Shown here: positions 9,001-59,707 of the stretch, piece after piece | Numbering within the stretch: position 1 is the stretch's first letter | Layout of the letters: every line of letters begins with the position of its first letter | Assembly (NCBI GenBank): GCA_000004985.1 | Contig: GG738866.1 | From: Naegleria gruberi | Taxonomy: Eukaryota | Reading direction: 5' to 3' (one strand) | Length of the DNA: 64,000 nt | Program-made: the position numbers and the translations under genes | The notes under the pieces: model-generated | The model's input: only the letters and a program-made list of their open reading frames with translations | Told to the model about the DNA's origin: nothing | The model's database searches: none

Positions 9001-12000
9001 NNNNNNNNNNNNNNNNNNNNNNNNNNNNNNNNNNNNNNNNNNNNNNNNNNNNNNNNNNNNNNNNNNNNNNNNNNNNNNNNNNNNNNNNNNNNNNNNNNNN
9101 NNNNNNNNNNNNNNNNNNNNNNNNNNNNNNNNNNNNNNNNNNNNNNNNNNNNNNNNNNNNNNNNNNNNNNNNNNNNNNNNNNNNNNNNNNNNNNNNNNNN
9201 NNNNNNNNNNNNNNNNNNNNNNNNNNNNNNNNNNNNNNNNNNNNNNNNNNNNNNNNNNNNNNNNNNNNNNNNNNNNNNNNNNNNNNNNNNNNNNNNNNNN
9301 NNNNNNNNNNNNNNNNNNNNNNNNNNNNNNNNNNNNNNNNNNNNNNNNNNNNNNNNNNNNNNNNNNNNNNNNNNNNNNNNNNNNNNNNNNNNNNNNNNNN
9401 NNNNNNNNNNNNNNNNNNNNNNNNNNNNNNNNNNNNNNNNNNNNNNNNNNNNNNNNNNNNNNNNNNNNNNNNNNNNNNNNNNNNNNNNNNNNNNNNNNNN
9501 NNNNNNNNNNNNNNNNNNNNNNNNNNNNNNNNNNNNNNNNNNNNNNNNNNNNNNNNNNNNNNNNNNNNNNNNNNNNNNNNNNNNNNNNNNNNNNNNNNNN
9601 NNNNNNNNNNNNNNNNNNNNNNNNNNNNNNNNNNNNNNNNNNNNNNNNNNNNNNNNNNNNNNNNNNNNNNNNNNNNNNNNNNNNNNNNNNNNNNNNNNNN
9701 NNNNNNNNNNNNNNNNNNNNNNNNNNNNNNNNNNNNNNNNNNNNNNNNNNNNNNNNNNNNNNNNNNNNNNNNNNNNNNNNNNNNNNNNNNNNNNNNNNNN
9801 NNNNNNNNNNNNNNNNNNNNNNNNNNNNNNNNNNNNNNNNNNNNNNNNNNNNNNNNNNNNNNNNNNNNNNNNNNNNNNNNNNNNNNNNNNNNNNNNNNNN
9901 NNNNNNNNNNNNNNNNNNNNNNNNNNNNNNNNNNNNNNNNNNNNNNNNNNNNNNNNNNNNNNNNNNNNNNNNNNNNNNNNNNNNNNNNNNNNNNNNNNNN
10001 NNNNNNNNNNNNNNNNNNNNNNNNNNNNNNNNNNNNNNNNNNNNNNNNNNNNNNNNNNNNNNNNNNNNNNNNNNNNNNNNNNNNNNNNNNNNNNNNNNNN
10101 NNNNNNNNNNNNNNNNNNNNNNNNNNNNNNNNNNNNNNNNNNNNNNNNNNNNNNNNNNNNNNNNNNNNNNNNNNNNNNNNNNNNNNNNNNNNNNNNNNNN
10201 NNNNNNNNNNNNNNNNNNNNNNNNNNNNNNNNNNNNNNNNNNNNNNNNNNNNNNNNNNNNNNNNNNNNNNNNNNNNNNNNNNNNNNNNNNNNNNNNNNNN
10301 NNNNNNNNNNNNNNNNNNNNNNNNNNNNNNNNNNNNNNNNNNNNNNNNNNNNNNNNNNNNNNNNNNNNNNNNNNNNNNNNNNNNNNNNNNNNNNNNNNNN
10401 NNNNNNNNNNNNNNNNNNNNNNNNNNNNNNNNNNNNNNNNNNNNNNNNNNNNNNNNNNNNNNNNNNNNNNNNNNNNNNNNNNNNNNNNNNNNNNNNNNNN
10501 NNNNNNNNNNNNNNNNNNNNNNNNNNNNNNNNNNNNNNNNNNNNNNNNNNNNNNNNNNNNNNNNNNNNNNNNNNNNNNNNNNNNNNNNNNNNNNNNNNNN
10601 NNNNNNNNNNNNNNNNNNNNNNNNNNNNNNNNNNNNNNNNNNNNNNNNNNNNNNNNNNNNNNNNNNNNNNNNNNNNNNNNNNNNNNNNNNNNNNNNNNNN
10701 NNNNNNNNNNNNNNNNNNNNNNNNNNNNNNNNNNNNNNNNNNNNNNNNNNNNNNNNNNNNNNNNNNNNNNNNNNNNNNNNNNNNNNNNNNNNNNNNNNNN
10801 NNNNNNNNNNNNNNNNNNNNNNNNNNNNNNNNNNNNNNNNNNNNNNNNNNNNNNNNNNNNNNNNNNNNNNNNNNNNNNNNNNNNNNNNNNNNNNNNNNNN
10901 NNNNNNNNNNNNNNNNNNNNNNNNNNNNNNNNNNNNNNNNNNNNNNNNNNNNNNNNNNNNNNNNNNNNNNNNNNNNNNNNNNNNNNNNNNNNNNNNNNNN
11001 NNNNNNNNNNNNNNNNNNNNNNNNNNNNNNNNNNNNNNNNNNNNNNNNNNNNNNNNNNNNNNNNNNNNNNNNNNNNNNNNNNNNNNNNNNNNNNNNNNNN
11101 NNNNNNNNNNNNNNNNNNNNNNNNNNNNNNNNNNNNNNNNNNNNNNNNNNNNNNNNNNNNNNNNNNNNNNNNNNNNNNNNNNNNNNNNNNNNNNNNNNNN
11201 NNNNNNNNNNNNNNNNNNNNNNNNNNNNNNNNNNNNNNNNNNNNNNNNNNNNNNNNNNNNNNNNNNNNNNNNNNNNNNNNNNNNNNNNNNNNNNNNNNNN
11301 NNNNNNNNNNNNNNNNNNNNNNNNNNNNNNNNNNNNNNNNNNNNNNNNNNNNNNNNNNNNNNNNNNNNNNNNNNNNNNNNNNNNNNNNNNNNNNNNNNNN
11401 NNNNNNNNNNNNNNNNNNNNNNNNNNNNNNNNNNNNNNNNNNNNNNNNNNNNNNNNNNNNNNNNNNNNNNNNNNNNNNNNNNNNNNNNNNNNNNNNNNNN
11501 NNNNNNNNNNNNNNNNNNNNNNNNNNNNNNNNNNNNNNNNNNNNNNNNNNNNNNNNNNNNNNNNNNNNNNNNNNNNNNNNNNNNNNNNNNNNNNNNNNNN
11601 NNNNNNNNNNNNNNNNNNNNNNNNNNNNNNNNNNNNNNNNNNNNNNNNNNNNNNNNNNNNNNNNNNNNNNNNNNNNNNNNNNNNNNNNNNNNNNNNNNNN
11701 NNNNNNNNNNNNNNNNNNNNNNNNNNNNNNNNNNNNNNNNNNNNNNNNNNNNNNNNNNNNNNNNNNNNNNNNNNNNNNNNNNNNNNNNNNNNNNNNNNNN
11801 NNNNNNNNNNNNNNNNNNNNNNNNNNNNNNNNNNNNNNNNNNNNNNNNNNNNNNNNNNNNNNNNNNNNNNNNNNNNNNNNNNNNNNNNNNNNNNNNNNNN
11901 NNNNNNNNNNNNNNNNNNNNNNNNNNNNNNNNNNNNNNNNNNNNNNNNNNNNNNNNNNNNNNNNNNNNNNNNNNNNNNNNNNNNNNNNNNNNNNNNNNNN

Positions 12001-14783
12001 NNNNNNNNNNNNNNNNNNNNNNNNNNNNNNNNNNNNNNNNNNNNNNNNNNNNNNNNNNNNNNNNNNNNNNNNNNNNNNNNNNNNNNNNNNNNNNNNNNNN
12101 NNNNNNNNNNNNNNNNNNNNNNNNNNNNNNNNNNNNNNNNNNNNNNNNNNNNNNNNNNNNNNNNNNNNNNNNNNNNNNNNNNNNNNNNNNNNNNNNNNNN
12201 NNNNNNNNNNNNNNNNNNNNNNNNNNNNNNNNNNNNNNNNNNNNNNNNNNNNNNNNNNNNNNNNNNNNNNNNNNNNNNNNNNNNNNNNNNNNNNNNNNNN
12301 NNNNNNNNNNNNNNNNNNNNNNNNNNNNNNNNNNNNNNNNNNNNNNNNNNNNNNNNNNNNNNNNNNNNNNNNNNNNNNNNNNNNNNNNNNNNNNNNNNNN
12401 NNNNNNNNNNNNNNNNNNNNNNNNNNNNNNNNNNNNNNNNNNNNNNNNNNNNNNNNNNNNNNNNNNNNNNNNNNNNNNNNNNNNNNNNNNNNNNNNNNNN
12501 NNNNNNNNNNNNNNNNNNNNNNNNNNNNNNNNNNNNNNNNNNNNNNNNNNNNNNNNNNNNNNNNNNNNNNNNNNNNNNNNNNNNNNNNNNNNNNNNNNNN
12601 NNNNNNNNNNNNNNNNNNNNNNNNNNNNNNNNNNNNNNNNNNNNNNNNNNNNNNNNNNNNNNNNNNNNNNNNNNNNNNNNNNNNNNNNNNNNNNNNNNNN
12701 NNNNNNNNNNNNNNNNNNNNNNNNNNNNNNNNNNNNNNNNNNNNNNNNNNNNNNNNNNNNNNNNNNNNNNNNNNNNNNNNNNNNNNNNNNNNNNNNNNNN
12801 NNNNNNNNNNNNNNNNNNNNNNNNNNNNNNNNNNNNNNNNNNNNNNNNNNNNNNNNNNNNNNNNNNNNNNNNNNNNNNNNNNNNNNNNNNNNNNNNNNNN
12901 NNNNNNNNNNNNNNNNNNNNNNNNNNNNNNNNNNNNNNNNNNNNNNNNNNNNNNNNNNNNNNNNNNNNNNNNNNNNNNNNNNNNNNNNNNNNNNNNNNNN
13001 NNNNNNNNNNNNNNNNNNNNNNNNNNNNNNNNNNNNNNNNNNNNNNNNNNNNNNNNNNNNNNNNNNNNNNNNNNNNNNNNNNNNNNNNNNNNNNNNNNNN
13101 NNNNNNNNNNNNNNNNNNNNNNNNNNNNNNNNNNNNNNNNNNNNNNNNNNNNNNNNNNNNNNNNNNNNNNNNNNNNNNNNNNNNNNNNNNNNNNNNNNNN
13201 NNNNNNNNNNNNNNNNNNNNNNNNNNNNNNNNNNNNNNNNNNNNNNNNNNNNNNNNNNNNNNNNNNNNNNNNNNNNNNNNNNNNNNNNNNNNNNNNNNNN
13301 NNNNNNNNNNNNNNNNNNNNNNNNNNNNNNNNNNNNNNNNNNNNNNNNNNNNNNNNNNNNNNNNNNNNNNNNNNNNNNNNNNNNNNNNNNNNNNNNNNNN
13401 NNNNNNNNNNNNNNNNNNNNNNNNNNNNNNNNNNNNNNNNNNNNNNNNNNNNNNNNNNNNNNNNNNNNNNNNNNNNNNNNNNNNNNNNNNNNNNNNNNNN
13501 NNNNNNNNNNNNNNNNNNNNNNNNNNNNNNNNNNNNNNNNNNNNNNNNNNNNNNNNNNNNNNNNNNNNNNNNNNNNNNNNNNNNNNNNNNNNNNNNNNNN
13601 NNNNNNNNNNNNNNNNNNNNNNNNNNNNNNNNNNNNNNNNNNNNNNNNNNNNNNNNNNNNNNNNNNNNNNNNNNNNNNNNNNNNNNNNNNNNNNNNNNNN
13701 NNNNNNNNNNNNNNNNNNNNNNNNNNNNNNNNNNNNNNNNNNNNNNNNNNNNNNNNNNNNNNNNNNNNNNNNNNNNNNNNNNNNNNNNNNNNNNNNNNNN
13801 NNNNNNNNNNNNNNNNNNNNNNNNNNNNNNNNNNNNNNNNNNNNNNNNNNNNNNNNNNNNNNNNNNNNNNNNNNNNNNNNNNNNNNNNNNNNNNNNNNNN
13901 NNNNNNNNNNNNNNNNNNNNNNNNNNNNNNNNNNNNNNNNNNNNNNNNNNNNNNNNNNNNNNNNNNNNNNNNNNNNNNNNNNNNNNNNNNNNNNNNNNNN
14001 NNNNNNNNNNNNNNNNNNNNNNNNNNNNNNNNNNNNNNNNNNNNNNNNNNNNNNNNNNNNNNNNNNNNNNNNNNNNNNNNNNNNNNNNNNNNNNNNNNNN
14101 NNNNNNNNNNNNNNNNNNNNNNNNNNNNNNNNNNNNNNNNNNNNNNNNNNNNNNNNNNNNNNNNNNNNNNNNNNNNNNNNNNNNNNNNNNNNNNNNNNNN
14201 NNNNNNNNNNNNNNNNNNNNNNNNNNNNNNNNNNNNNNNNNNNNNNNNNNNNNNNNNNNNNNNNNNNNNNNNNNNNNNNNNNNNNNNNNNNNNNNNNNNN
14301 NNNNNNNNNNNNNNNNNNNNNNNNNNNNNNNNNNNNNNNNNNNNNNNNNNNNNNNNNNNNNNNNNNNNNNNNNNNNNNNNNNNNNNNNNNNNNNNNNNNN
14401 NNNNNNNNNNNNNNNNNNNNNNNNNNNNNNNNNNNNNNNNNNNNNNNNNNNNNNNNNNNNNNNNNNNNNNNNNNNNNNNNNNNNNNNNNNNNNNNNNNNN
14501 NNNNNNNNNNNNNNNNNNNNNNNNNNNNNNNNNNNNNNNNNNNNNNNNNNNNNNNNNNNNNNNNNNNNNNNNNNNNNNNNNNNNNNNNNNNNNNNNNNNN
14601 NNNNNNNNNNNNNNNNNNNNNNNNNNNNNNNNNNNNNNNNNNNNNNNNNNNNNNNNNNNNNNNNNNNNNNNNNNNNNNNNNNNNNNNNNNNNNNNNNNNN
14701 NNNNNNNNNNNNNNNNNNNNNNNNNNNNNNNNNNNNNNNNNNNNNNNNNNNNNNNNNNNNNNNNNNNNNNNNNNNNNNNNNNN
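1..14783. other. Assembly gap (run of N)
   Basis: Uninterrupted n characters from 1 to 14783; real sequence starts at 14784. Confidence 0.99.
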
Positions 14784-15716
14784 GGATAGAGTCAGCATAC
14801 GCAAGTAGATAGATTATTTCCAAGAATACTTACTTCGGAATAAGTGGAGACGACTCATCACTTCCACCTTAGGTTCTCTAGTCTTTTATGAAATTCATGA
14901 ACCTTAAGACTGATGAACCAGCTAGTTTATAATGAGTGATTGAGACAAAAGATGTCAATGCCATACGGCTTACCAAACCTATACTTTGAGACCTTAATAG
15001 GTTCGAATAAGACAATGACTCCAACCACAATTATATTTACTCATTGCCTTATTCGATTTGATCTTTGATGAAAAATCGTTTAGGCGAATCAGATTTTAAT
15101 TGAATGAAATGTCATTTTCATGCAAGCTCAATATATTCGAAAAGGTCACTAAACTGCGCTATTCGAAATGTATTGACTTTTTACTATTGTGAAAGGTTTG
15201 AAACAGTGTCAAAAAAGTAGTTTCAAATAGATGTTTCTAAAGTCGCCAAAGATTGAAGAACTTGATAACCACTTGGTTAATATTTCAAATTGTTAATTGT
15301 TTAGGATGATATTTGGGATTCCAATGCCAGGTTTTGAGATAATGGTGGGCTTAGAATTTAACGAAAATGGTTTACCTGTTGTTTGCCTTCTTGACGTGTT
15401 TTGAAGCTTGGGAATACACTACAATTTCCTTTTTTATCTCAAAACGCGGCATAAAAATGAGTTTACGTCTGATTCCAATAATTCCAACAATGAACTGCTC
15501 GACGCATGTCATGCATCCAAAATAATACCCCATTTAGTCTAATCAACCCAAGAAACTAAACGAAAGGATTTTACTTAATTTCAGATGCGTCATTAGCTGT
15601 TGATGCACATGGAGATAATCTTGGCAAGATGAAAGGTTAGGTCTTTTAAAACGTTGTGTTCTAAACTTTTTACTCTTTTCAAGAAACATGCTTTCTTCTA
15701 TATTATGAACTAAAGG

Positions 15717-28849: not shown

Positions 28850-31800
28850 TCATTCTTGTGCTCTGATTGCAGAAATTATTGCCTGATTCAGATCGTCTTT
28901 AGAAATTGGCTTGTTGAGGCACGAATCAATAGAGTCCATATTATTAAACTTGTCCATTAGGGCATCAGCCGTTAAGAGAATAATTTTGACCTTATCACCA
29001 TTTGGCAAGGATCGAATCTCATTTGCTGCGTCAATTCCATTAATGATGGGCATGTGAAGATCCGTTACAATTATAGGGTGATACTCCTTCCTGAAGGCCT
29101 CAATCAACTCGAAACCATTGGCACTTGTTGTGATATTTTTGAATCCACCTTTTTGTAATAGTTTTTTAAGTACAGAAAGATTGATAGGATTGTCCTCAGC
29201 AAGTAATATCTTAGTTTCAAAGATATCAATGCAACCTGTAACGGTGACGGAACTCGTGTTTTCCGTAGTGTTGGTTGTTGTGGTCGTAGTGCTTGTAGTA
29301 ATGGATCCCGTAGAATCTTGTAGAGAATGTTTTGGCGAGGCAGTAGTACTGCTCTTTGATTGTCTCTTCTTCATCATGTACAATTCCTTATGGAGGAGGT
29401 GAGTTTTTTGAATTTCGCTATCAATATTATTTAGAGCATTTGGTATGGTGCCCAAATCATCACTCTTCTTAATGTGAGAGTCGAGCAAAATGGTACTGGC
29501 ACCAGAAGATGAGGTCATACTCTCAGTACTCATCGATTGATTCACAATTGGATTTGTTCTGAGGATTTCTTCAATTTGTTTGAGGGAATTCTTCTTCTTT
29601 TTATCAGGAAGTTGGAATGGAATTGAAATGCAAAATGTAGTACCATGATTTGGTGATGGTTCACAAAGGGTTCTATAGCTAATGCCACCTTTCATGTTGA
29701 TAATAATCTTTCTAAGAATGGTCAATCCAAGGCCTGTGCCAATCACACTACCATCACCATTGTGATTGTGACTGGAGAAGGGTTTGAAGAGTAATTTTTG
29801 AATATCCTTCTGAATACCACATCCATGATCGATAACCTTGAAAACAACAGTCTTGATGGTTGGAGTTTCTTGTTGGAGGAGTGTTTGTGCTGATGATTCA
29901 GTACTGGTGGTACTTGTTGGCTCAATGGATAGATCCTTCCTCTTGACTACTACAATTTCCTTAGCGCTTGATCTTCCATCATCAATGATATCTTCTGGAT
30001 TATCATCCTCGAGTACTTCAACTGCGAGGGTAACAACTTGATTTCTCGAAGAAGCCTTAATTGAGTTGGTTAATAAATTGATAAGAACTTGTTGCAAACG
30101 AACACTCTCTCCCAAAACATAGGACGGAAGGAATTTGCTCGTCACAAAATCAATGGTCACATCAAAGTTAGAAGCATACGAGCTGGCAATGCTTCTCACA
30201 TGTTGTAAACAATCGAAGAGGGAAAAGACAGTCTTGTGGTTTTCAACCTTTTCTTCATTAGTTGTATTTTTACCAAGCATTGAATTGGTGGCAATTTCCA
30301 TGTTTGTCTTTTCAAGTTTTGAATATTGTAAAATATCTTCAATCAGGGTTAACAAGATTGAGGAACAACTTCCAATAGTTTTGATGTAATTAATTTGTTC
30401 AGCATTTAGAGTTGTATCCAATAAGAGTTCAATGCTTCCAGAAATACTCATCTATATTTTTGCATTCAGCAGTGATATATTTGAAATATATTGTTAAATA
30501 TATGATTAGTTTCAAAGGTAGAAAAATATTTGAATCGGGTTATAAAGTTTAAACATACCAATGGAGATCTAAACTCATGAGAAATGGAACTGACAAGTGC
30601 ATTCTTGGAACGATTAGCTTCCTTCAGTTTGCTTGTCATTAACTTCATAGTATTGAGTCTGTTCATTAACTTGTAACTCACCGAATTGAGCATAAAGTTC
30701 AAAACAGTAAGCAAGCAAAAAGTACCAAATGCTTCAACATATCGATTATGGACCACTGACAAAATGATGGCAATACCCACCGAAACAATGTGTTGTGAGA
30801 GGATAACCCACATGATAGCCTCATATGAGTGTACCCTGCAATCCACAAGTGCATTCTGAAGAATAATGTATGAATAATTGTGCACAGTGCTCGAGAGGAA
30901 TCCAATCATTAGCCATCCAACAGTATAATCCTTTGTGCACAACAAAAGTCTAAGGAAGAACACTGCAATATTCACTACAATCATAACTTTGCAAGTGTAG
31001 ACTTCCAACAACCGTTGTTTCTTTGCTGCCAAATAGGAAGCATCTACAGGTGTTCCACTTGAGGAAGAAGAGGATGCTCTCGTGGTGGTGGAGGATGTCG
31101 ACGATGAGCCAACACTTCCAAATCTCCAAAAATCACTTGATGAATAGAATGGAACAGTGTTTGGTTCCTTTTGTCCTTCAGATGTTGATGATGATGGGGG
31201 TAGGGGTGTTGTGAGTGGAATTACACTCTGATCAGAATTGCCACCAACAATATCTTCATGTTCTACAATTTCTCCTAGTGTGGCTGCATCCCTGGATAGA
31301 TGTTTTATGAGCCAAACAACCAATCGTTGTTGTACCAAATTTCTAACATATTTAAAATTGATAACAATGGCAATAATGCATAAAAAGCTCATGCTAATTG
31401 GATAGTCGGTCGAGTAGACAATCAAATAAGCATAACAAAGGAAAAGACAAATCGGAAGGAAGATTTGGTGCAACTTTTCATTCAAGATCATAGCCGAATC
31501 ACCTTGCATAAAGCTTGTATTATTTGATGATTGATTGAGTTGTGGTGAAGTTGCAGAAGGTGGTTCTGTTGGCGAGCCAAAAATACTATTTCTTCTGTCT
31601 TCAATGTTTGCATTGTTACTAATTGCAGGATTATCAGAAACAGACACTCGAACCTTTTTTGATGAAGTTTCTGTTGTTGGTACATTTGTATTATTTCCAG
31701 AGGATTGATAGGTTGATGTTGTTGTAGTTGAAGGGGTGGTAGAAGTATGTACATTGTTAGTAGAAGAAGAATTGTAGTGAGGTGATGTAAAATTAGAGGC

Positions 31801-32409
31801 TGATAAAGAGGAAGCCAGTTCGTCAGCATTGATGGTTGCTCCTGTTGTTGTATCAGGAGAGGATTTTCCAGAACTTGATAAACTCTCATTAGAAGAACAA
31901 GTTGATGAAGTGGAAAGGCTATCATTTCCCGAATCCTTTCTATTGGTATTAATACTTGTTGTTGATGTTTCCACTGTTGGTGAATTTCCTCCAACTAATT
32001 GTGAGGAAGTAGAAGAAGTGTGGCTAATGTGATGATGTTGTATCATGTCTGCTGTTGTGAGTGTAGTTGCACCACCTTCCACTATCGAGGAGGCAACAGA
32101 TTGATCACTGGGCATGATACGATTATTGTTACTTGCTACTTGTGCAGCTCCACTCATCTGGGTGTTTTTCTTTAGTTTTGCATCTATTTGAAGGGTTTCA
32201 AGGAAGTCGTCTTTATGCTTCAACATGTTCTCTTTTGGAGAAAGTTCGTTCAAGGCAAATTTGTTATCGGAATGTACAGTTGAGGGTTTTGTAATATTAA
32301 TTTTTTCTGTCGATTGTAAGTCCCTCATAATGATGAGTTGTTGCTTTCCAATTTGAGGTACAACTAGTGGTGTTATTTTCTTGGGTTGAGTTGCTTGATT
32401 ATTAACCAT
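28850..32409 (-). CDS. Hybrid sensor histidine kinase (multi-TM N-terminal region, HisKA, HATPase_c, C-terminal receiver domain), 2 exons
   Basis: Exons (minus) 32409..30559 and 30451..28850; intron 30452..30558 (107 nt, GTATGT...TATAG, phase 0). The splice rebuilds the H-box: '...SISHEFRSPL|MSISGSIELLLDTTLNAEQ...IEDILQYSKLE'. N-box 'LINLLTNSIK', G1 'VIDHGCGI', G2 'GTGLGLTI'. Receiver domain 'KILLAEDNPINLSVLKKLL...IVTDLHMPIINGIDAANEIR...KIILLTADA'. The N-terminal ~300 aa are Ser/Thr/Asn-rich, followed by 5-6 hydrophobic helices. Confidence 0.85.
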
Positions 32410-35578: not shown

Positions 35579-37542
35579 ATGCAGCAAAATCGAAAGAATA
35601 GTAGGCAAGATCCAATTACATTGGAAAGGGTATACTTCTCTCCGGTATCATTGCAAAGTGATACTGAAAAACCATCATTATTCGAAAAAACTATTCGAAA
35701 GGAAAATCGTATTCATAATTTTTTCCTTAGTATTCGCATGAGTATTTGTACTTTCAATTTTATCATCTTTTTCATACTTGTTATAGTTTGTACATTAACT
35801 TTTGCTTTTTCCTTTCGCGATTCCTTTCGAATAGTTGAGAAGAAACAATCTGATGATTATTCGAAACAAACCATCAACGCTTTTCGAGATGAATTCTTAA
35901 ATCTTAATGACAAAATAGCCAACTATGCAATATGGGACAATATATACGAAATGGTCCATTCATCAAATGCTGCCAATCAAGTTTCTCTCTTCTTCCAAAC
36001 TTACTATCCCTGTTATTTCATGGAGAGAATGTCATTGAATTATATTGCAATGTATTATCCGAATGGTACCCTACTACATTACAAATCATGTTGGAATTTG
36101 GACGAAATTAATGGACTGATTGATGAATTAATTCATTTAGATTCGTTTTATTTAAGGAATTGGAATGATTCTTCAATGAGAGTGAATTCAATTTTGATAC
36201 CCAAACAGAAAATCAACAAGAAAACTTTCGAGTTGGAAATTCTTCCGCCAATTCAATTTAAAAATCATGCAAATCTTACGTATGAGGAAATTCTATTAAT
36301 TTCTGGAACCCCAATTCAAACTTTGAATACAAGTATGGCAGATGGGTTTATTATTTATGGAAGATATTTGGAAAGGGATGTTTTGAATGAAATTGCATTG
36401 AGAACTGGTCATTGCTTTACTGTTTATAATATGGATGATTTGACAGATGTGTCACAACTCAAAATTGATATGGATTTACAAAATGTGAATGGATTGAATG
36501 ATTCCCAAGTAGTATTTGAGTATTTAGAGAATGCCAATTATCATAATTTTGAATCTACTTTGAATGAATATTCATCTTTTTTTGATAGACACGAAATAGA
36601 AAGTTCAAGTTTTCTTACCAAAGTTTCACAAGTTTATTCATATGAAGATAGAACATGTCCTTCATACTTTGGAGTTTCAAATCCATCTACATCATCTGTT
36701 GGAACAAGATTAGTTAACTTTCTCTTATTCAGAGATTTTAAAAACAAGGCAGTAATGGTTGTGAGAATTGATGATGAGCGAAGGAATGAATCGATAATTA
36801 TTGGAGGATCCGCTTCAATCTATGTCTTCTTTGCACTTCTTTCCACAATCTTGAGTTTAGCATTGCAGGGATTTTTTGAAATTGGTATTATTCTAAGGGT
36901 TTCATCCATCCAAAAAATAATTAAGAAAGTCACACAAGACAATGACCCAACACTAAGAATACCCCCTCCAAAACACCAACTCCACGAAAAAGATGAAATT
37001 GGACAATTAGAAATCAACCTAAACGAAATGCTTCGAGCATTAGAATTGGTGCAACACAAACTCTCAAAAGATAACGAAATGATGAAAACAATTTTGGAGA
37101 GAATTACTGTAGAGGGAGAGAAATGTAAGGCAGTGATGAATAGTATTCAGGATTTTATATTTATTGTGGAGTGTGAGAGTGGAAAGTTGATTAGTTCGAA
37201 TGAAACATTTGAAAGAAAGGTTTCCAATGGTTCAAAAAATGTTTTGTGAATCAAATTATTTGTAATGAGAAGGATTTCATATCATTGGAAGAATCATTGC
37301 TAACTTTGGAATATTTATCTCAAAATCAGAATTGTGAAAGATATTTGGCCATACTCATTACGAATCCACTTGCTGAGAATGATAATCCATGGGATGACGA
37401 AACAATTCGAATAAGAAATGACATTCGTTCCAAGCACAACATTCCCATCACCTTATCAGTTGCCAAATCAAGAATTGTGTTATCGAAAGATACCATTGGA
37501 GATGCCTTTATCATTCTCGCTAAACCTCTCTTGGCGGTTTAA
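35579..37542 (+). CDS. Membrane sensor protein: TM - ~330-aa extracytoplasmic domain - TM - HAMP - PAS; no obvious output domain. The reading frame breaks near 37210-37330, from an intron or a frameshift.
   Basis: ORF 35579..37249 has TM1 'ICTFNFIIFFILVIVCTLTFAF' and TM2 'SASIYVFFALLSTILSLALQGFF'. HAMP-like 'DEIGQLEINLNEMLRALELV'. PAS start 'MMKTILERITVEGEKCKAVMNSIQDFIFIVECESGKLISSNETFERK'. ORF 37246..37542 starts with GTG and continues PAS-like ('...NCERYLAILIT...IPITLSVAKSRIVLSKDTIGDAFIIL') in another frame. A weak-donor intron 37241..37329 (GTTTTG...ATCAG, 89 nt) would join them in frame; a +1 frameshift is the alternative. Confidence 0.55.
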
Positions 37543-37888: not shown

Positions 37889-40644
37889 ATGAAGAATAAG
37901 GTAATTCCACAAGGTGAGGATAATACTCATCAACAAACACCTTCATCATCCACTTCATCAACAACACGAATGGCACTCCCAAACAAAACCTCCTCTAATA
38001 GCAGTATTGTTGTTGGGGGAGTGTCTCCTGTTGCCACATCTCCAGTAATGACCACCACCAACACCAACAACAAAACGACAAAACAAGATTCTTCCCAATC
38101 ATTCTCTATACAGGCAAGTGGGAAGGAGAGTGGTAAGGATTTAAAGGCCAGTTATCAAAGTTATCATTTTCATCCTAATCATGAGGATGAAAACGCCTCA
38201 ACCACCTCACATATGATGGAAATAGCCTATGGTGGAGGAATGTGTTTCAGATCAATAAGTTGCTGTTTGGTGGGGATTATATCTTCGTTGGTGATATTGT
38301 CGGTAGTTACATTGACTAGTATTTGGATATCAACTACTGTTCCAACATTAGCTGTGATGAGTTCGCAATTGAGAGTTGAGCAATTTTCAACAGTTGTAAA
38401 TAATATTAATCAAACGATACAGAATTTGGTCATTGGTATGTTTTTACTTTACCTTAATATACAAATAATACTTTTTCTAATTATAATTTAATATCTTGAT
38501 GGTATTTTTTATAGTATCTGAAACAACGAAAAGACTGTTAACAGAAGATTTTAATTTTTCAGATCCCTCCCTCATTGAAAAGACAATGTATAATTTGTAT
38601 AAGAGTGAAATGGCTCTAGGGCGATCTGAAATTACAATAACGCTGTATATTGGTGATACAGTGGGAAATTGTTGGGGGATTTATAGATCTGGTGATTCTG
38701 TCTTTTATCTAGATGTGAACAAACAACAGGGGCAGAAAATGTACCTTTGTGAAGATGTACAACACTCGGATTATTGCAAGAGAAATCTTGTGAATGCAAC
38801 TGTTGAACTGCCACCATTTGATCTTTCTCCATTGGTCACACATTCTCATGAGCATAGTGGAAGACCGTCATTTTCATTGAGTTATGTAGATTCGACAGTA
38901 CCTAGTGTGACTTTCCTTACACTCCTTAACACTTTCAATTCATCAAGAGTGAGCAATTTCAATTTCAATTATTATTTTGGTTATGATGTGACTTCAGCTT
39001 CAATTTCTTCTTTTCTAGAGAAACAAACCAAATCTGTTGATGGATCAGTTGCGTTTGTAATTGAAACTAAAACAGAATTCTTGATAGCATGTAGTGATAC
39101 TGCCCATCCCCTTGTTGAAGTTAATGAATCAAATGGAGAGGTGATCAGAAAAACTGGATTAACTTTTGCAGATGAATTAACATTCAAAATCGCTCAATTC
39201 ATGTATCATAGTGTAAATAATAATCTGAGCTCCCTAACTTGCGGAAAGGTTCTGTTGGCAGAGGGATCGTTGTACTATATCAATGCTATGAGAGTTTGTT
39301 CAGAACAGGATTTGGACTGGATTATCGTTTGGGCAACACCTCAGAATAGATATACTCAGAGTACAGTAATTGCATTGACAGTGTCTGGAATTTCAAGTAT
39401 TATCATTATCAGTGTTGCTCTCATTGTTGGATTTTTAGCATCCAAGTCAATTGTAAAACCATTTCACAAATTTATGCAGGCAGCAGAATCAATATCAAAT
39501 ATGGAATTGGAATCCTTTTCATTCTCAGATACTCGTATTATTGAAGTGGAAAAGCTGCAAAAAATGTTTGTCATGTTGGCAAATCGATTGAAAACCTACA
39601 GAAGTTTCCTACCTTCTAACGTCTTACTTGAAATTGATAATGGTGGAAAGGATATTAATGCCAATTCAAGTTATCACACCAAAGAATCTCATTTGGGATC
39701 ATTCCTAGTTGGAGGACATAGTAGAGGTTCAAGTTCTTTCAGCTTTAAGAAGAACAAACTGGCTTTAAGATTGGAAAAGAGACAAGTGACAATGTGTGGA
39801 ATTTATATTGAAGGATTTGATTATTGCATACATCATTTGGATTATCACGATATTATTATCATGTTGAGTGATTTATTTGACTCGATTCATAAAACTAGTC
39901 TGACTTCAGCTGCAGAAGTTGGACAATTCGATAACGAGCTCATCACTTTGGCCTGGAACTCCCTGGCTGATCAACCAAACCACATCTTTAGAGGAATTTC
40001 AAATTGTCACATTCTTAGAGATAAACTCTTGAAATCCCTTGAAAAATGGAATGCCAGAGAAGATATTGATCAAGCTCTCAATATTCGAATGTCGCTCCAC
40101 ACTCAAGAATCAATTGTTGGAAATATAGGTACGAGAGAAGCAAAGAGTCATGCCTCCATAGGAAGTTGCCATGCCAACATGAAGAAACTTTCCAAAACTT
40201 GTTCCAGCTTCTCAATTTCACTTCTGGTAACTGAACCAATTCACAAGGAATCTTCCGAATCATTCCTTACAAGATATATCGACACTATTCGATTGTTCCG
40301 TCAAAATGACTGCAGTATTAATATGAGTGAGGAAAAAACAGAAGATGTTGCAGTGTACGAAATTGGAAATAGAAATGATGTTAAAATGGATGGTAAGTAA
40401 TGCAAATATTATTGGCTTAACTAAACTATTTAAATTTCTAATAGAATGGATGTATGAATTGAAGGAAAGGGGAGAGAAAACCAAATGGGATCGATACATT
40501 CTAGGATGTCAATATTTCCACAATGAAGATTACAAAGAAGCTTTCGAATTTTTCGAAGATTATGAAACAATTTTCGAGGAAAGATATGGTCGCTCTGATT
40601 TACCAACTCTAAATCTAATGGCCAAGTGTAAATTGCATTTATAA
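37889..40644 (+). CDS. Receptor-type protein: N-terminal TM, ~380-aa extracytoplasmic domain, TM, HAMP-like linker, class III nucleotidyl-cyclase homology domain with a substituted metal-binding residue (probable pseudo-cyclase); 3 exons
   Basis: Exons 37889..38435, 38515..40392, 40445..40644. Intron 1 is 38436..38514 (GTATGT...TTATAG, phase 1); intron 2 is 40393..40444 (GTAAGT...CTAATAG, phase 1). Both join three track ORFs in frame. TMs 'CCLVGIISSLVILSVVTLTSIWI' and 'VIALTVSGISSIIIISVALIVGFLA'. The cyclase-homology domain spans about 39760..40250: 'RQVTMCGIYIEGFDYC' aligns to 'VTxLFADIVGFT' with D replaced by Y; 'GQFDNELITLAW' aligns to 'IGDxYMA'; 'RMSLHTQESIVGNIGTREAKSHASIGSCHANMKKL' aligns to 'GxHxGxVxAGVIGxxRxxYxxxGxxVNxAxR'. 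Confidence 0.75.
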
Positions 40645-40676: not shown

Positions 40677-41810
40677 ATGTTTTCAAAAATTTGGAAGGCT
40701 TCTCTGACCTGTCATGATCTAAATATAAAGATTACAAAAAAAATGGGCAACAAGCAACCTTCCAACACTCCAGCCTTGCCTGCTGGTTATTCAAAGTCTT
40801 CATCATCGTGTACACCATCGAAGAGTAGTGGCCACTCTTTAATTACTGATTATTTTTCTACCAATTGTAAATTAATTAGAATTAGTGATGCTGATCGGAA
40901 ACAAGAATTGGAAAGTATGAATAGAAACAAAATTAAATATTCAAGTAAATTGGAAAATAATTTACCAGAGGAAATGATCATTCACATTTTGGATTATTTA
41001 CCCATTAGAAATTTAGTATTATTGCAACAAGTTTCGAAAAATTTCAAAATCTATTGGACTCTGTTTCCAGAATTGTGGACTAAATTTTCTGCTCCAATGA
41101 TGTACATGCCAGACAATAACGGAAATTGGACTAGCAGTTATATTCTCTTTCAACAATTCAAATTCAAATTGATGAATTCTTTTGTGAAGGATAAGAAAAC
41201 TCCTAATTTAGAAGGAAAAATTTCAAGAATTGCAGTGTTGGGTGATGATAAAATTGGAAAGACAATCCTTCATCATAGAGCATTTGGAGGTGAACCATTT
41301 TCAGAGATTTACACTTGGACCATTGGTGTCGAGTTTTTCAATCGAATTAATACTCAAAATTTATTGAGAATGCATTCGTGGGATTCTGGTGGTAATGAAC
41401 GATTTAGGGAAATTGTTTGGGGATATCACAAGACTGTAAAGAGTCACTTTTATTGTTTTGATTTGAATAATCACAATTCTTTTGAGAATGCCAAGAAATT
41501 ATTCTACTCTTGGAAGGAAAGATTTTTACAAACTGAAACTGTCGAGTCATTTTTGCAAAGTAATGAATCGTGCATTCTTCTACTGGGATTGAAATCAGAT
41601 TTGGAGCATAAAGTGACTCGAGATGAAATTCATGAATTTTTGGAAGATATTGAGCCACTTAAAAACAAGACACTTCACACCAGCAAAGTTCAATATTTTG
41701 AATTGAGCTCTAAATTAGATTCTGAATCGGATCTGCTTTTCCCATTTATTTATGCATGTTCGGTGGCGATTGAAAGGCCTCTTTTTTCTTCTTTTGGAGG
41801 TTCTAAATAG
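40677..41810 (+). CDS. F-box domain fused to a Rab/Ras-like small GTPase domain
   Basis: 377-aa ORF. An internal ATG at 40743 is an alternative start. F-box 'LPEEMIIHILDYLPIRNLVLLQQVSKNFKIYWTLFPELW'. GTPase motifs: G1 'VLGDDKIGKT', switch I 'TWTIGVEFF', G3 'WDSGGNERF', G4 'GLKSDL', G5 'ELSSK'. Starts only 32 nt after the stop of the upstream gene. Confidence 0.75.
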   Translation: MFSKIWKASLTCHDLNIKITKKMGNKQPSNTPALPAGYSKSSSSCTPSKSSGHSLITDYFSTNCKLIRISDADRKQELESMNRNKIKYSSKLENNLPEEMIIHILDYLPIRNLVLLQQVSKNFKIYWTLFPELWTKFSAPMMYMPDNNGNWTSSYILFQQFKFKLMNSFVKDKKTPNLEGKISRIAVLGDDKIGKTILHHRAFGGEPFSEIYTWTIGVEFFNRINTQNLLRMHSWDSGGNERFREIVWGYHKTVKSHFYCFDLNNHNSFENAKKLFYSWKERFLQTETVESFLQSNESCILLLGLKSDLEHKVTRDEIHEFLEDIEPLKNKTLHTSKVQYFELSSKLDSESDLLFPFIYACSVAIERPLFSSFGGSK

Positions 41811-42966: not shown

Positions 42967-44134
42967 ATGATGACCAATCAACAACAATTTGTTAATCAAG
43001 CAACAATGGTTTATTATCGATATGATAAGGATAGAAATGGAGTTTTGAAGAAGAAGGAATTCAAGAAGGCTATGCAAGGTTTGTTTTTATATTTTGATAT
43101 CTTTGTTCCTAAAATGTGTCTTTTTCAAATTGTGGATGACAATGATGACGAATTTTCTCACTCTTGCATTTGTTCTACACCAATTAATTGCAATTACAAT
43201 TTTAGAAATGGGAGCTCATAAAGGTGAAACTAAGCATCTCTTCAAAATGGTTGATACTGATCACAATAAGGTCATCACTCTTAATGGTAAGTTTATTTAA
43301 CAACCGAGTGTAGGGTTTATTTACGCATGATGATTTTAGAATTTATTAATGGTATGTTTAAGCAATATTATGATTAGCTCATTAATTTTAGCATTCTTAT
43401 TCTTACAAAGTGGAGGTATGAGATATAAAGGAACTGGATATAGCGGAGCTTATGGAACTTTGGGATCAACAACCACAACCGTAACTTATACTGGAAAACC
43501 AGTGATGCAATCAGGAATGCAACCTCAAACAGGTTATGGTATGCCTCAAACAATGGCGGGCCAATATCCACCATCTCAACAATACCCTCCTCAACAAGGC
43601 TATCCACAACAAGGAATGACTAGCACTACCATGACAATGAATGGTCACCAATATCCACCTCAATATCCACCTCAATATCCACCACAACAAGGAATGCAAC
43701 CAGGTATGAATCCTCCAAGTTATCCACCACAACAAGGAATGCAACAACCTGGAATGTATAATCCTCAAACAAGTCAATATCCGCCTCAATCTGGAATGCA
43801 ACCACAACAAGGAATGTACGTTCCACAAACTGGTCAATATCCTCCACAACAACAAGGAATGCAACCAGGTATGAATCCTCCAAGTTATCCACAACAAGGA
43901 ATGTATACCCCTCAACAAGGAATGCAACCACAACAAGGCATGTATAATCCACAATCTGGCCAATACCCACCACAACAACAAGGAATGCCTCAACCTGGAA
44001 TGCAACCACAACAACAAGGAATGCAATATCCACAACAAGGCATGTACACTCCTCAAACTGGCCAATACCCACCACAACAACAAGGACAACAAGGAATGCA
44101 ATATCCACCTCAATATCCACCATCTCAACAATAA
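42967..44134 (+). CDS. Two-EF-hand calcium-binding protein with a long C-terminal Pro/Gln-rich 'YPPQQGMQ' repeat tail; proposed 4 exons including a 12-nt micro-exon
   Basis: Proposed exons 42967..43078, 43206..43286, 43340..43351, 43392..44134. EF-hand 1 '[14 protein letters not shown]'. EF-hand 2 '[12 protein letters not shown]|EFIN' (the glutamate at loop position 12 comes from the micro-exon). Introns 43079..43205 (GTTTGT...TTTTAG), 43287..43339 (GTAAGT...TTTTAG), 43352..43391 (GTATGT...TTTTAG, 40 nt) all keep frame. Alternative: the EF-hand protein ends at TAG 43375..43377, and 43349..44134 is a separate gene starting with a signal-peptide-like '[23 protein letters not shown]'. Confidence 0.5.
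43560..44130 (+). repeat. Coding tandem repeat (imperfect ~21-30-nt units encoding [15 protein letters not shown])
   Basis: Recurrent 'cctccacaacaaggaatgcaacca' / 'caatatccacctcaa' units. Translation '[57 protein letters not shown]...'. Confidence 0.75.
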
Positions 44135-57850: not shown

Positions 57851-59707
57851 ATGAGTACAAGCACGAACAGAACCCATCCTGTTATTCAGCAGCCACCATC
57901 TGATCAAAAAAGTAGTTCTAGACCACCATCAAAACAACCAGGTGGATCAAGAGGAGGTAAACAAACAGTCTATAGCAGCAGTAACAGTACTTCTAGCACC
58001 AACACAACAAGTAGCGCCAATACAACCAATAATTCTACTAACAATGTGGCCAGTAACGGTTCAGGTAGCAATAACAACAGCAGAAATAGAAGATACTATA
58101 ACAACAATACAACCAATAACAATTCTAACTCCTCAGCAAGTAATTTAAACAACAACAATAATAATAATCAAAATAGAAACAACCAAAACACCAACAATAA
58201 TCAAAGTAATACCAACAATAATAACAACAATAGAGGAGGAAGATTCAATTCAAAGCAATCATACAACCATCATCGTAATCTCCTGGAGAATATGAACAAA
58301 GTTAATGAGAATCTCCACCAAGAAATACCTCAACAATCAACAACCACTCCATCCACCTCCGTCCCTACCACTTCTCCAACTACCGCTCCAAAATTGTCAT
58401 ATTCAGCAATTGTTGGTGGACAAACAGTCACTGACGATATCAACGAACTAGATACTCATAAACCATCCAACTTGGCTATTGCTAAAGAATTGGTTCAAGA
58501 CGAATTATGGAAAGATAAGCTTAGTTTGCCACCTAGAGATGACCGTATGCAAACTGAAGATGTTACACTTACCAAAGGTTCTGACTTTGAAGAATTCGGC
58601 TTAAAGAGAGAATTATTGATGGGTATCTTTGAAAAGGGTTTCGAAAGACCATCTCCCATCCAAGAACAAACTGTCCCATTAGCTCTTTTCGGTAGAGACA
58701 TTTTGGCCAGAGCCAAGAACGGTACTGGTAAGACTGCTGCTTTCATTATTCCTTGTCTTGAAAGAGTTGATACTTCAAAGAATCAAATCCAAATTTTGAT
58801 TTTGGTTCCAACAAGAGAATTGGCTTTGCAAACAAGTCATGTTTGTAAAGAAATCGGAAAGTACCTCAACGTTGAAGTCATGGTTACCACAGGTGGTACT
58901 TCTTTGAAAGATGATATTGTTAGACTTTACAAGCCTGTTCACATTCTCGTAGGTACACCAGGTAGAATTATCGATCTTGCTAGCAAGGGTGTTGCTAACT
59001 TGAACAATGTTTCCATGTTGGTCATGGATGAAGCTGACAAACTTTTGAGTCCTGAATTTGTTCCATTGATTGAAAAACTTATTTCATTCGTTCCTCCATC
59101 TCGTCAAATCCTCTTATTCTCTGCTACCTTCCCAATTACTGTTAAGGACTTTAGAGACAAATGGCTCACCAAACCATACGAAATCAATTTGATGGACGAG
59201 TTAACACTCAAAGGTGTAACCCAATACTATGCCTTTGTCGAAGAAAGACAAAAAGTTCACTGTCTTAACACTTTATTCTCTAAGCTACAAATCAACCAAT
59301 CTATTATCTTCTGTAACTCTGTTAACAGAGTTGAATTGTTGGCCAAGAAGATTACTGAACTTGGTTATAGTTGTTTCTACATCCATGCCAAGATGCCACA
59401 AGATTTGAGAAACCGTGTCTTCCACGACTTTAGAAATGGTGCTTGCAGAAACTTGGTGTCTTCCGACTTGTTCACCAGAGGTATCGATATTCAAGCTGTT
59501 AACGTTGTTATCAACTTTGACTTCCCAAAGAACTCTGAAACCTATCTCCACAGAATCGGTAGATCTGGTAGATATGGTCACTTGGGTTTGGCAATTAACT
59601 TTGTTACCTATGAAGACAGATTTAACTTGTACAAGATTGAACAAGAATTGGGTACTGAAATTAAGCCAATACCTCCAACTATTGACAAGAATTTGTATGT
59701 CGCTTAA
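57851..59707 (+). CDS. DDX6: DEAD-box ATP-dependent RNA helicase of the DDX6/Dhh1/Me31B family with a ~230-aa Asn/Ser/Thr-rich N-terminal extension
   Basis: 618-aa single-exon ORF. Q-motif '[28 protein letters not shown]', I '[11 protein letters not shown]', Ia 'PTRELALQ', II '[10 protein letters not shown]', III 'SAT', VI '[42 protein letters not shown]'. The helicase core is near-identical in motif content to the Dhh1/DDX6 subfamily. Confidence 0.9.

Follow-up and report, generated by a model that had tools for sequence, protein, structure and literature searches.

An F-box–Rab-like GTPase gene of a lineage-specific family in Naegleria gruberi

On the + strand of a 64,000-nt stretch of the Naegleria gruberi genome (the window), one reading frame appears to encode an F-box followed by a small GTPase. 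Is this one gene or two neighbors read as one, could the GTPase part still bind and hydrolyze nucleotide, and what would a protein so built do? The answer that we favor, at a probability of roughly three in four, is an F-box–Rab-like gene of a lineage-specific family, whose F-box would engage an SCF ubiquitin ligase and whose G domain would bind a partner. As a discovery it carries small weight, since the gene and its F-box were already catalogued in 2021 (Herman et al.); neither the fusion nor this exact gene is new. What is added here to that work is the set of relatives in Willaertia magna and in metagenomes, the Met-Gly start at Met23, the systematic loss of the catalytic Gln and the missing prenylation Cys in the clade, and a confident structure model. 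The start, the lost Gln, the missing prenyl anchor and the model are testable features for the family.

Gene model and start codon

The frame is single and uninterrupted, running from the ATG at 40677 to the stop codon at 41808-41810, and gives a complete intron-less ORF (40677..41810; all features below are likewise on the + strand) of 377 aa plus stop. By string comparison it is identical, over the 377 aa and the stop, to the sequence for XP_002677491.1 in Table S8 (sheet N.gruberi) of Herman et al. 2021 (PMC8296547), a manually corrected model that is assigned there to class "Rab" with the additional domain "F-box" and carries no pseudogene flag. Judged by its sequence, the ORF is a nuclear protein-coding gene of this amoeboflagellate, RefSeq XP_002677491.1. 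The RefSeq model under that accession (EFC44747.1; P0014 in our alignment) is only a 136-aa partial fragment without the F-box, and matches ORF aa 181-316 at 100% identity. A tblastn search with the protein found no second copy in the whole window, and the gene is therefore not part of a local tandem family.

The first ATG of the ORF is probably not the one used. Among the 21 full-length or near-full-length relatives that could be compared (all alignment rows except the RefSeq fragment), 18 have a Met-Gly start aligned exactly to Met23-Gly24 of the ORF, and the real start therefore probably lies at Met23 (40743..40745), giving an N-terminus MGNKQPS; aa 1-22 would then probably be 5' leader. 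M23 is conserved in at least 90% of the family alignment, and the paralog P0001 begins MGNNQQP at this position. The RefSeq model hides the F-box, and the 377-aa or the 355-aa product should replace it.

A Met-Gly start raises the matter of N-myristoylation, for which we used the PROSITE pattern (a Met-Gly start followed by G-{EDRKHPFYW}-x-x-[STAGCN]-{P}). The pattern is matched in 12 relatives, and many relatives may be N-myristoylated. Read from Met23, the ORF protein does not match it, because in MGNKQPS a Pro occupies the [STAGCN] position; Gly2 itself is conserved, so this protein too may be myristoylated.

Domain architecture

The sequence-only reading of this stretch had placed an F-box N-terminal to a Rab/Ras-like G domain, with no stop between the two. 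Profile searches, an alignment of 22 sequences and the AlphaFold model (whole-chain pLDDT 77, pTM 0.73) all agree with it: both domains score above the curated Pfam cut-offs, neither stop nor frameshift lies between them, and in the model a helical F-box and linker precede a Rab fold predicted with confidence.

The N-terminal region (aa 1-52, 40677..40832) is Ser/Pro-rich and predicted to be disordered (pLDDT <50), and apart from its MG start is weakly conserved in the family. It is followed by a structured segment (aa 55-94, 40839..40958; pLDDT 70-83) for which AlphaFold gives secondary structure, with a YF..NCKLIR strand and a helix at aa 71-87; its residues Y59, F60, N63, C64, K65, L66, I67 and R68 are shared with P0001. 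The F-box itself covers aa 95-129 (40959..41063), with the string LPEEMIIHILDYLPIRNLVLLQQVSKNFKIYW at aa 96-127, and is hit by both PF00646 (E 2.7e-7, 30.7 bits against a cut-off of 20.5, aa 95-129) and the F-box-like profile PF12937 (E 1.7e-6, 28.1 bits against 24.3). Its three short helices are modeled at aa 98-106, 110-119 and 121-127. A phmmer search of the N-terminal 128-aa segment against the PDB gave nothing significant (best FtsQ, E 0.19; FBXW8, E 0.36), so that the F-box call rests on profiles and not on pairwise similarity. The pattern LP..I..IL.YL....L..L..VSK.F..YW is conserved in the family, and the consensus positions that contact Skp1 (LP, I/L, L, VSK.F/W) are kept across sequences that are merely 22-50% identical. 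The linker to the G domain (aa 130-180, 41064..41216; pLDDT about 60-84) comprises a helix (131-135), a strand (143-145) and a second helix (151-166), and its motifs ..LW.. and MMY.P are conserved with close paralogs.

The small-GTPase domain occupies aa 181-364 (41217..41768) and is detected by the Ras profile PF00071 at aa 185-350 (E 1e-16, 61.3 bits against a cut-off of 21.6). Among the families of the Ras superfamily, Rabs are its best matches in both sequence and structure. The earlier description of a complete but divergent G1-G5 series, with WDSGGNE in place of WDTAGQE and LKSD in place of NKxD, stands in every part. G1, the P-loop GDDKIGKT (aa 189-196, 41241..41264), is intact, its G189, G194 and K195 being invariant in the 22-sequence alignment. 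Switch I (G2) is TIGVEF (aa 215-220, 41319..41336), which holds the switch-I Thr and in alignments that included Ypt7 and Rab39B resembles the RabF1 motif IGVDF. In G3, WDSGGNE (aa 235-241, 41379..41399), DxxG is intact and the catalytic Gln has become Asn240 (41394-41396). G4 is LKSD (aa 305-308, 41589..41600), with the Asn of NKxD replaced by Leu and the Lys and Asp kept; K306 is conserved in at least 90% of the family, whose motif here is G[LMTF]K[SRKMCLT][DE]. G5, SSK (aa 344-346, 41706..41714), falls within a family-specific C-terminal signature, VQYFELSSK.D....LLFPF.Y, in which Y340 and E342 are likewise conserved in at least 90%. Across the family, then, the nucleotide-contact residues of G1, G3, G4 and G5 are conserved but the catalytic Gln is not: that position holds N, D, H, S, G, E, I, T or P, and Q in one environmental sequence only. 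Of the five RabF motifs (IGVDF, KLQIWD, RFRSIT, YYRGA, LVYDIT), IGVEF and RFREIV are recognizable in the alignment with Ypt7 and Rab39B, while RMHSWD, YHKTV and YCFDLN are partly similar or degenerate.

The C-terminal tail (aa 365-377, 41769..41807; pLDDT <50 for aa 368-377) ends in ...ERPLFSSFGGSK and has no cysteine. Hence none of the prenylation motifs sought in it (CC, CXC, CCXX, CaaX) is present. The last five residues lack Cys in the ORF and in 17 of the 21 other aligned sequences.

Family and origin

Searching 1.84 billion representative proteins gave 16 matches below 1e-30, and 22 sequences made up the family alignment. The Ras domain is found in all 22 and the F-box in 21, always in the same order; the one sequence without F-box is the truncated RefSeq model of the ORF's own gene. 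Relatives sharing the fusion, which the earlier reading had proposed looking for, do exist, and by these counts the co-occurrence of F-box and GTPase across the family is far beyond chance. Named two-domain relatives come solely from N. gruberi, N. fowleri, N. lovaniensis and Willaertia magna, the remaining two-domain matches being metagenome contigs; the family therefore extends past the genus Naegleria into Willaertia, which is also heterolobosean. Some relatives have no switch-I or G3 motif at all (e.g. P0028, P0067).

In a crude NJ tree, the ORF gene and XP_002672750 pair as in-paralogs within N. gruberi, and a single N. lovaniensis gene is their sister. The ORF and its paralog have 49% amino-acid identity, and their synonymous sites are saturated.

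These relationships fit what has been reported for the genus. Divergent Rab-like clades with an N-terminal F-box occur in Naegleria, orthologues outside Heterolobosea being absent, and birth-and-death evolution and disrupted copies are reported, some family members being decaying pseudogenes (Herman et al. 2021, PMC8296547). The ORF belongs to such a lineage-specific family, expanded through birth-and-death evolution. In the first part of Table S8 alone, the "Rab + F-box" genes of N. gruberi number at least 19, this one included (PMC8296547). The coupling had been called unusual in the sequence-only reading, which is fair for eukaryotes generally but not for Naegleria, where no other additional domain occurs as often on GTPases of the Ras superfamily (Rab, Rho, Ran, G-alpha; PMC8296547).

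Possible function

The elements for binding guanine nucleotide are all kept in the ORF protein (P-loop, switch-I Thr, DxxG, G4 Lys and Asp, SSK), and since neither the catalytic Gln nor the Asn of G4 is present, the domain is probably a slow or non-hydrolyzing binder. F-box proteins bind Skp1 and position their C-terminal domain as a substrate receptor. In the present protein the F-box would dock the chain on Skp1, and through it on a ubiquitin ligase of the Cul1 type; the G domain would sit where canonical F-box proteins carry a WD40, LRR or Kelch substrate receptor, and would therefore serve as a partner- or substrate-binding module. Such a G domain would not switch quickly but stay mostly in the GTP form, or need a GAP acting in trans. 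Without the catalytic Gln, a plain cycle between GTP and GDP is less assured, and the Gln and G4 Asn substitutions together could mean that nucleotide switching is wholly lost. Given the lack of a C-terminal prenyl cysteine, membrane attachment, if any, would need the conserved Met-Gly and N-myristoylation, a route for which many relatives fit the consensus but the ORF protein fits it poorly. With RhoBTB-Cul3 there is already a case of a cullin adaptor that contains an atypical GTPase domain, and the mechanism, if true, would provide a second independent small-GTPase-fold adaptor of a cullin ligase.

We put this specific picture, an F-box protein of SCF type whose partner-binding module is a Rab-like domain that hydrolyzes GTP slowly or not at all, at somewhat below even odds. 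A literature search for Naegleria Skp1/SCF returned nothing relevant. GTPase-dependent ubiquitination was already proposed by Herman et al., the same speculation as the functional part of the sequence-only reading, and the same authors held that a specific functional prediction for the family was not possible (PMC8296547). A bolder form of the idea, which we consider doubtful, sees in the Naegleria and Willaertia MG-F-box-Rab-like proteins a lineage-specific class of SCF substrate receptors, anchored to membranes by N-myristoylation, in which a GTP-locked Rab-like domain devoid of the catalytic Gln picks effector-like targets for ubiquitination; rapid gene birth and death would then diversify target specificity at the organism-environment interface. 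Only the architecture in this bolder form is already published.

Other explanations of the locus bear on different parts of this argument. The most basic is that an F-box gene and an adjoining small GTPase gene happen to lie in one frame with no stop between them, for which one may point to the RefSeq model, a GTPase fragment only. This is hardly credible: MG start, F-box, linker and GTPase follow one another in this order in over 20 homologues, drawn from four species and metagenomes, with linker motifs conserved, the pTM holds over the whole chain, and manual correction by specialists gave exactly the 377-aa product (PMC8296547). We rejected it because of that conserved colinearity. If the fusion is real, the GTPase might still be cargo and not receptor, the F-box bringing it to SCF or to auto-ubiquitination; a Rab-like GTPase of signaling or trafficking would in this way be kept at a low, dynamic level. 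Auto-ubiquitination within SCF is indeed common for F-box proteins. Self-regulated turnover was one option of the sequence-only reading and is allowed by Herman et al. (PMC8296547), and TbFRP, a FYVE-F-box-GTPase protein and the one F-box-GTPase with experimental work behind it, is rapidly proteolysed, its authors tentatively tying the F-box to this turnover and not to substrate recruitment (PMC3593210). We nonetheless consider it unlikely, as the G domain is placed exactly as a substrate-receptor domain is, and the conserved surface motifs peculiar to the family (VQYFELSSK..D..LLFPF, FCFDLN) hint that a binding partner, too, is conserved. Self-turnover and a substrate-receptor role are mutually compatible.

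A further question is whether the Rab-like domain handles nucleotide at all. It might be a rigid interaction domain, neither cycling nor binding nucleotide, in a fast-evolving F-box family of which some members are becoming pseudogenes. The Gln-to-Asn and G4 Asn-to-Leu changes, the degenerate RabF4 and RabF5, the relatives that have lost switch I or G3 altogether (P0028, P0067) and the reported disrupted copies and birth-and-death evolution (PMC8296547) point that way, but GxxxxGKT, the switch-I Thr, DxxG, K.D and SSK are intact in the ORF, the three P-loop residues named above are invariant across the alignment, and the ORF is itself intact with no pseudogene flag in Table S8; we regard a pure scaffold as quite improbable. 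Even less probable is that the F-box recruits Skp1 without a cullin, for a role in membrane traffic instead of ubiquitination. The model for this is yeast Rcy1-Skp1 in Rab11-dependent endosomal recycling, where the F-box protein Rcy1 acts with Ypt31/32 independently of Cul1, and the analogy gains from the Rab-like character of the G domain here. Outside the F-box, however, there is no sequence similarity to Rcy1, and with no prenyl anchor and a poor myristoylation site, membrane association is itself only hypothetical. The receptor reading remains the one that we prefer.

Relation to known proteins

Canonical Rabs (Rab7/Ypt7, Rab1, Rab8, Rab33B, Rab39B) are the best matches to the G domain, and the ORF shares with them the RabF1-like IGVEF, the RabF3-like RFREI and the order of G1-G5. 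It differs from them in a 180-aa N-terminal extension with the F-box, in the changes of Gln to Asn, NKxD to LKSD and RabF4 YYRGA to YHKTV, in additional residues that separate alpha3 from beta5 and G4 from G5, and in having no C-terminal CC, CXC or CaaX. RhoBTB, in which an atypical, poorly hydrolyzing Rho domain is joined to BTB domains to make a Cul3 adaptor, offers a functional analogy only, that of a GTPase domain within a cullin-RING ligase adaptor. Its partners are BTB and Cul3 and not F-box, Skp1 and Cul1, its GTPase is Rho and not Rab-like, and its domain order is another; the two fusions are not homologous.

The Naegleria F-box Rab-like clade of Herman et al. 2021 (BMC Biol 19:142, Supplementary Material 4, Table S8) is the same family, with the same gene and the same architecture, and we see no substantive difference. 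Beyond Naegleria, published F-box-GTPase combinations come from Euglenozoa (TbFRP; PMC3593210) and from Legionella effectors (bioRxiv 10.1101/350777). TbFRP (Tb927.7.3790), from another discoban protist lineage, combines in a single chain an F-box and, after it, a Rab-like G domain whose closest match is TbRab18; the protein is set beside the ORF family here by description. TbFRP carries an N-terminal PI3P-binding FYVE domain that the ORF protein does not have: Pfam profiles gave no FYVE match in the ORF at E<=1, and the motif R[RK]HHCR is absent from all 165 retrieved proteins. Its authors found no N. gruberi orthologue (PMC3593210). The Legionella effectors, likened to the ORF by description, bring a Rab-like domain together with an F-box or U-box; they differ in being bacterial and translocated, with a Rab domain of variable position (Gomez-Valero et al., bioRxiv 10.1101/350777). 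Legionella parasitize amoebae including Naegleria (bioRxiv 10.1101/350777). In the bolder reading above, the Naegleria and Willaertia proteins might also share an ancestor with the F-box-GTPase module of euglenozoan FRP, or with the F-box-Rab effectors of Legionella.

Gene identity and domain architecture

A single reading frame at 40677-41810 (+), with 377 codons plus a stop, encodes an F-box followed by a Rab-like GTPase domain. In Pfam-A the F-box profile PF00646 matches aa 95-129 (E 2.7e-7, 30.7 bits; cut-off 20.5 bits), F-box-like PF12937 scores 28.1 bits (cut-off 24.3 bits), and Ras PF00071 matches aa 185-350 (E 1e-16, 61.3 bits; cut-off 21.6 bits), with weaker, overlapping Roc and Arf matches in the G domain. 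The fusion had been proposed by the sequence-only reading, and both domains do exceed their cut-offs within one ORF, the F-box and Ras profiles named there for checking being significant. The strings it quoted were all located (LPEEMIIHILDYLPIRNLVLLQQVSKNFKIYW at aa 96-127, WDSGGNE at aa 235-241, LKSD at aa 305-308), and the frame between the domains is uninterrupted as it had said, with no stop, frameshift or obvious intron. The architecture is real and was correctly interpreted.

The gene is not new. A full-text search found Herman et al. 2021 (BMC Biol 19:142, PMC8296547), in which the "N.gruberi" sheet of Table S8 (Additional file 10) lists XP_002677491.1 with a 377-aa "corrected protein sequence", annotated "Rab" with additional domain "F-box"; by string comparison, every residue and the stop are identical to our ORF. 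Thus the full fused model was already published by specialists, and the gene, the domain call and the same functional speculation as in the sequence-only reading are all in that paper. In its first part alone, Table S8 assigns an F-box to at least 19 Rab entries for N. gruberi, and the whole file mentions F-box 72 times; Supplementary Material 4 reports disrupted copies in the Naegleria family, under "dynamic birth-and-death evolution". The public model of XP_002677491.1 lacks the F-box: titled "rab family small GTPase, partial", it is a fragment of 136 aa (EFC44747.1, from a 469-kb scaffold) that agrees with ORF aa 181-316 (about 41217-41624) at 100% identity and covers part of the G domain only. 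These matches assign the window to N. gruberi NEG-M. Because the NCBI model is this fragment, the fusion is invisible in RefSeq and UniProt. Our additions are incremental, namely the Met-Gly start, relatives in Willaertia, the clade-wide loss of the catalytic Gln, the lack of a prenyl anchor and a structural model; in practical terms, the comparison also exposes RefSeq XP_002677491.1 as truncated.

In the published correction (PMC8296547, Table S8) translation begins at ATG 40677. Among 21 full-length or near-full-length relatives (the RefSeq fragment excluded), 18 open with a Met-Gly aligned exactly to Met23-Gly24 of the ORF; since they do, the true start is probably ATG 40743, with a 355-aa product and the first 22 codons probably untranslated. 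The PROSITE N-myristoylation pattern is matched by 12 relatives, and by neither the studied protein (MGNKQPS) nor its paralog (MGNNQQP). The stop of the preceding gene, at 40642-40644, is only 32 nt upstream of 40677.

Relatives of the fusion protein

The first homology search returned one close match, the N. gruberi "rab family small GTPase" XP_002672750.1 (P0001), 49% identical and likewise F-box plus Ras. A profile of these two proteins, run against 1.84 billion cluster representatives, gave 16 matches below 1e-30, the weaker ones being thousands of ordinary small GTPases. The two-domain matches that bear a name belong to four species alone, N. gruberi, N. fowleri, N. lovaniensis and Willaertia magna; metagenome contigs account for the rest. 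The Willaertia members carry the family outside the genus Naegleria, which adds modestly to what had been published. Relatives with the same fusion, which the sequence-only reading had suggested seeking, fill the 22-sequence family alignment: Ras is present in 22/22 and the F-box in 21/22, the exception being the RefSeq fragment of the studied gene (P0014). In a crude NJ tree the gene and XP_002672750, 53% identical in the columns that both occupy, form a pair of N. gruberi in-paralogs with N. lovaniensis XP_044554748 as sister, which agrees with a lineage-specific duplication; the window holds no second copy.

Of the 165 retrieved proteins, 31 contained the F-box according to a family-specific HMM, three of these being long and multidomain (765-954 aa). 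These three, N. gruberi XP_002676828.1 (P0081, 929 aa), N. fowleri XP_044565615.1 (P0113, 954 aa) and the metagenomic P0076 (765 aa), have a large N-terminal stretch of about 400-570 aa, followed by a family-type F-box (around aa 390-615) and, at the C-terminus, a G domain. An environmental relative on a Logan assembly contig (P0092, 552 aa) has a different, unannotated F-box-Rab architecture, with an Asp/Asn beta-hydroxylase domain as well as F-box and Rab; its Rab part is more canonical (WDTAGPE), and its last residues, CSLL, form a CaaX box.

Protein anatomy

The family alignment, and an AlphaFold2 model built with it (mean pLDDT 77, pTM 0.73), define the protein from N- to C-terminus. A predicted disordered N-terminus (aa 1-52) leads into a small structured element conserved with the paralog (aa 55-94), then the F-box (aa 95-129) with three short helices and conserved LP, I/L, L and VSK.F.YW positions, a linker that includes a long helix (aa 130-180), and the Rab-like G domain (aa 181-364). 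The G domain mostly has pLDDT 88-98, with a drop to 79-81 near aa 221-250. Against the PDB, Foldseek matched Rab7, Rab8, Sec4 and Rab9 (target TM about 0.8), and a PDB sequence search gave Rab/Ypt/Sec4 proteins for 60/60 of the matches listed.

The G motifs are present and divergent, as had been described. G1 (GDDKIGKT) is intact and contains G189, G194 and K195, the only invariant columns of the 22-sequence alignment; switch I has its Thr within a Rab-like TIGVEF. G3 keeps DxxG and has Asn240 for the catalytic Gln, a position held in relatives by N, D, H, S, G, E, I, T or P, with Gln in one environmental sequence only. G4 retains its Lys and Asp, and G5 (SSK) is intact inside a family signature, VQYFELSSK.D....LLFPF.Y. 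With no cysteine in its C-terminal tail, the protein cannot undergo Rab-type prenylation. By similarity the domain is Rab-like, yet it lacks two features that define Rabs, a prenylation motif and a catalytic Gln.

Genomic neighbourhood

GC content is about 35%; with the intron of the upstream gene and the neighbouring hybrid histidine kinase, CHASE4 and DEAD-box helicase genes, it points to a protist. Positions 1-14783 of the window are an unbroken run of N (assembly gap or masked), real sequence beginning at 14784. The upstream gene, 38496-40644 (+), has an apparent 52-nt GT..AG intron (GTAAGT at 40393, AATAG ending at 40444) whose removal would put a 634-aa ORF in frame with ORF 40327-40644; the latter has weak TPR/ANAPC3-like matches, and the large exon no Pfam domain. 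A hybrid histidine kinase (HisKA, HATPase_c, Response_reg) at 28850-30451 (-) probably runs on into 30466-32409 (-), a 647-aa ORF without a Pfam match that may be its sensor part. A 556-aa ORF at 35579-37249 (+), lying among eukaryotic signalling genes, has an extracellular sensor domain of the mostly bacterial CHASE4 type (E 4.7e-11). Elsewhere are a 261-aa low-complexity protein with P/Q/G/M-rich repeats and no Pfam match, at 43349-44134 (+), and an ordinary housekeeping gene for a DEAD-box RNA helicase (DEAD + Helicase_C), at 57851-59707 (+).

Possible function

Skp1 binding is a general property of the F-box motif, and the F-box here would be expected to share it. The G domain occupies the position of the substrate receptor in F-box proteins, which makes it the strongest candidate for a target-binding module. 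To judge from its motifs it looks nucleotide-binding-competent; because it has kept the nucleotide-contact residues but not the hydrolytic Gln or the G4 Asn, we favour a slow or non-hydrolysing domain that would be predominantly GTP-bound. Hydrolysis driven by a GAP could still occur, since TBC RabGAPs provide a Gln in trans. We give the protein a probability of roughly 0.4 of being a receptor of an SCF ubiquitin ligase.

The F-box and Rab-like domain are conserved in one polypeptide across proteins only 22-50% identical, and an artefact joining two genes is highly improbable. Self-turnover of the GTPase has been suggested for the euglenozoan protein TbFRP; for the Naegleria protein it is a somewhat doubtful alternative. 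A pseudoGTPase scaffold, acting independently of nucleotide, is unlikely beside a G domain with its contact residues kept, and a Skp1 complex working without cullin, like yeast Rcy1, is quite unlikely. Several of these readings, that of an SCF receptor included, can hold together.

Comparison with known systems

TbFRP is a published FYVE-F-box-GTPase of Euglenozoa, whose authors found no N. gruberi orthologue (PMC3593210). A motif search of the 165 retrieved proteins found no FYVE motif, and the studied protein is not an FRP because that domain is absent. Another published F-box-GTPase combination is that of the Legionella Rab-domain effectors with F-box domains (bioRxiv 10.1101/350777). Any resemblance to RhoBTB, a Cul3 adaptor, is by analogy only. 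The protein is Rab-like rather than a canonical Rab, and it is a member, and a listed entry, of the published Naegleria F-box-Rab-like group.
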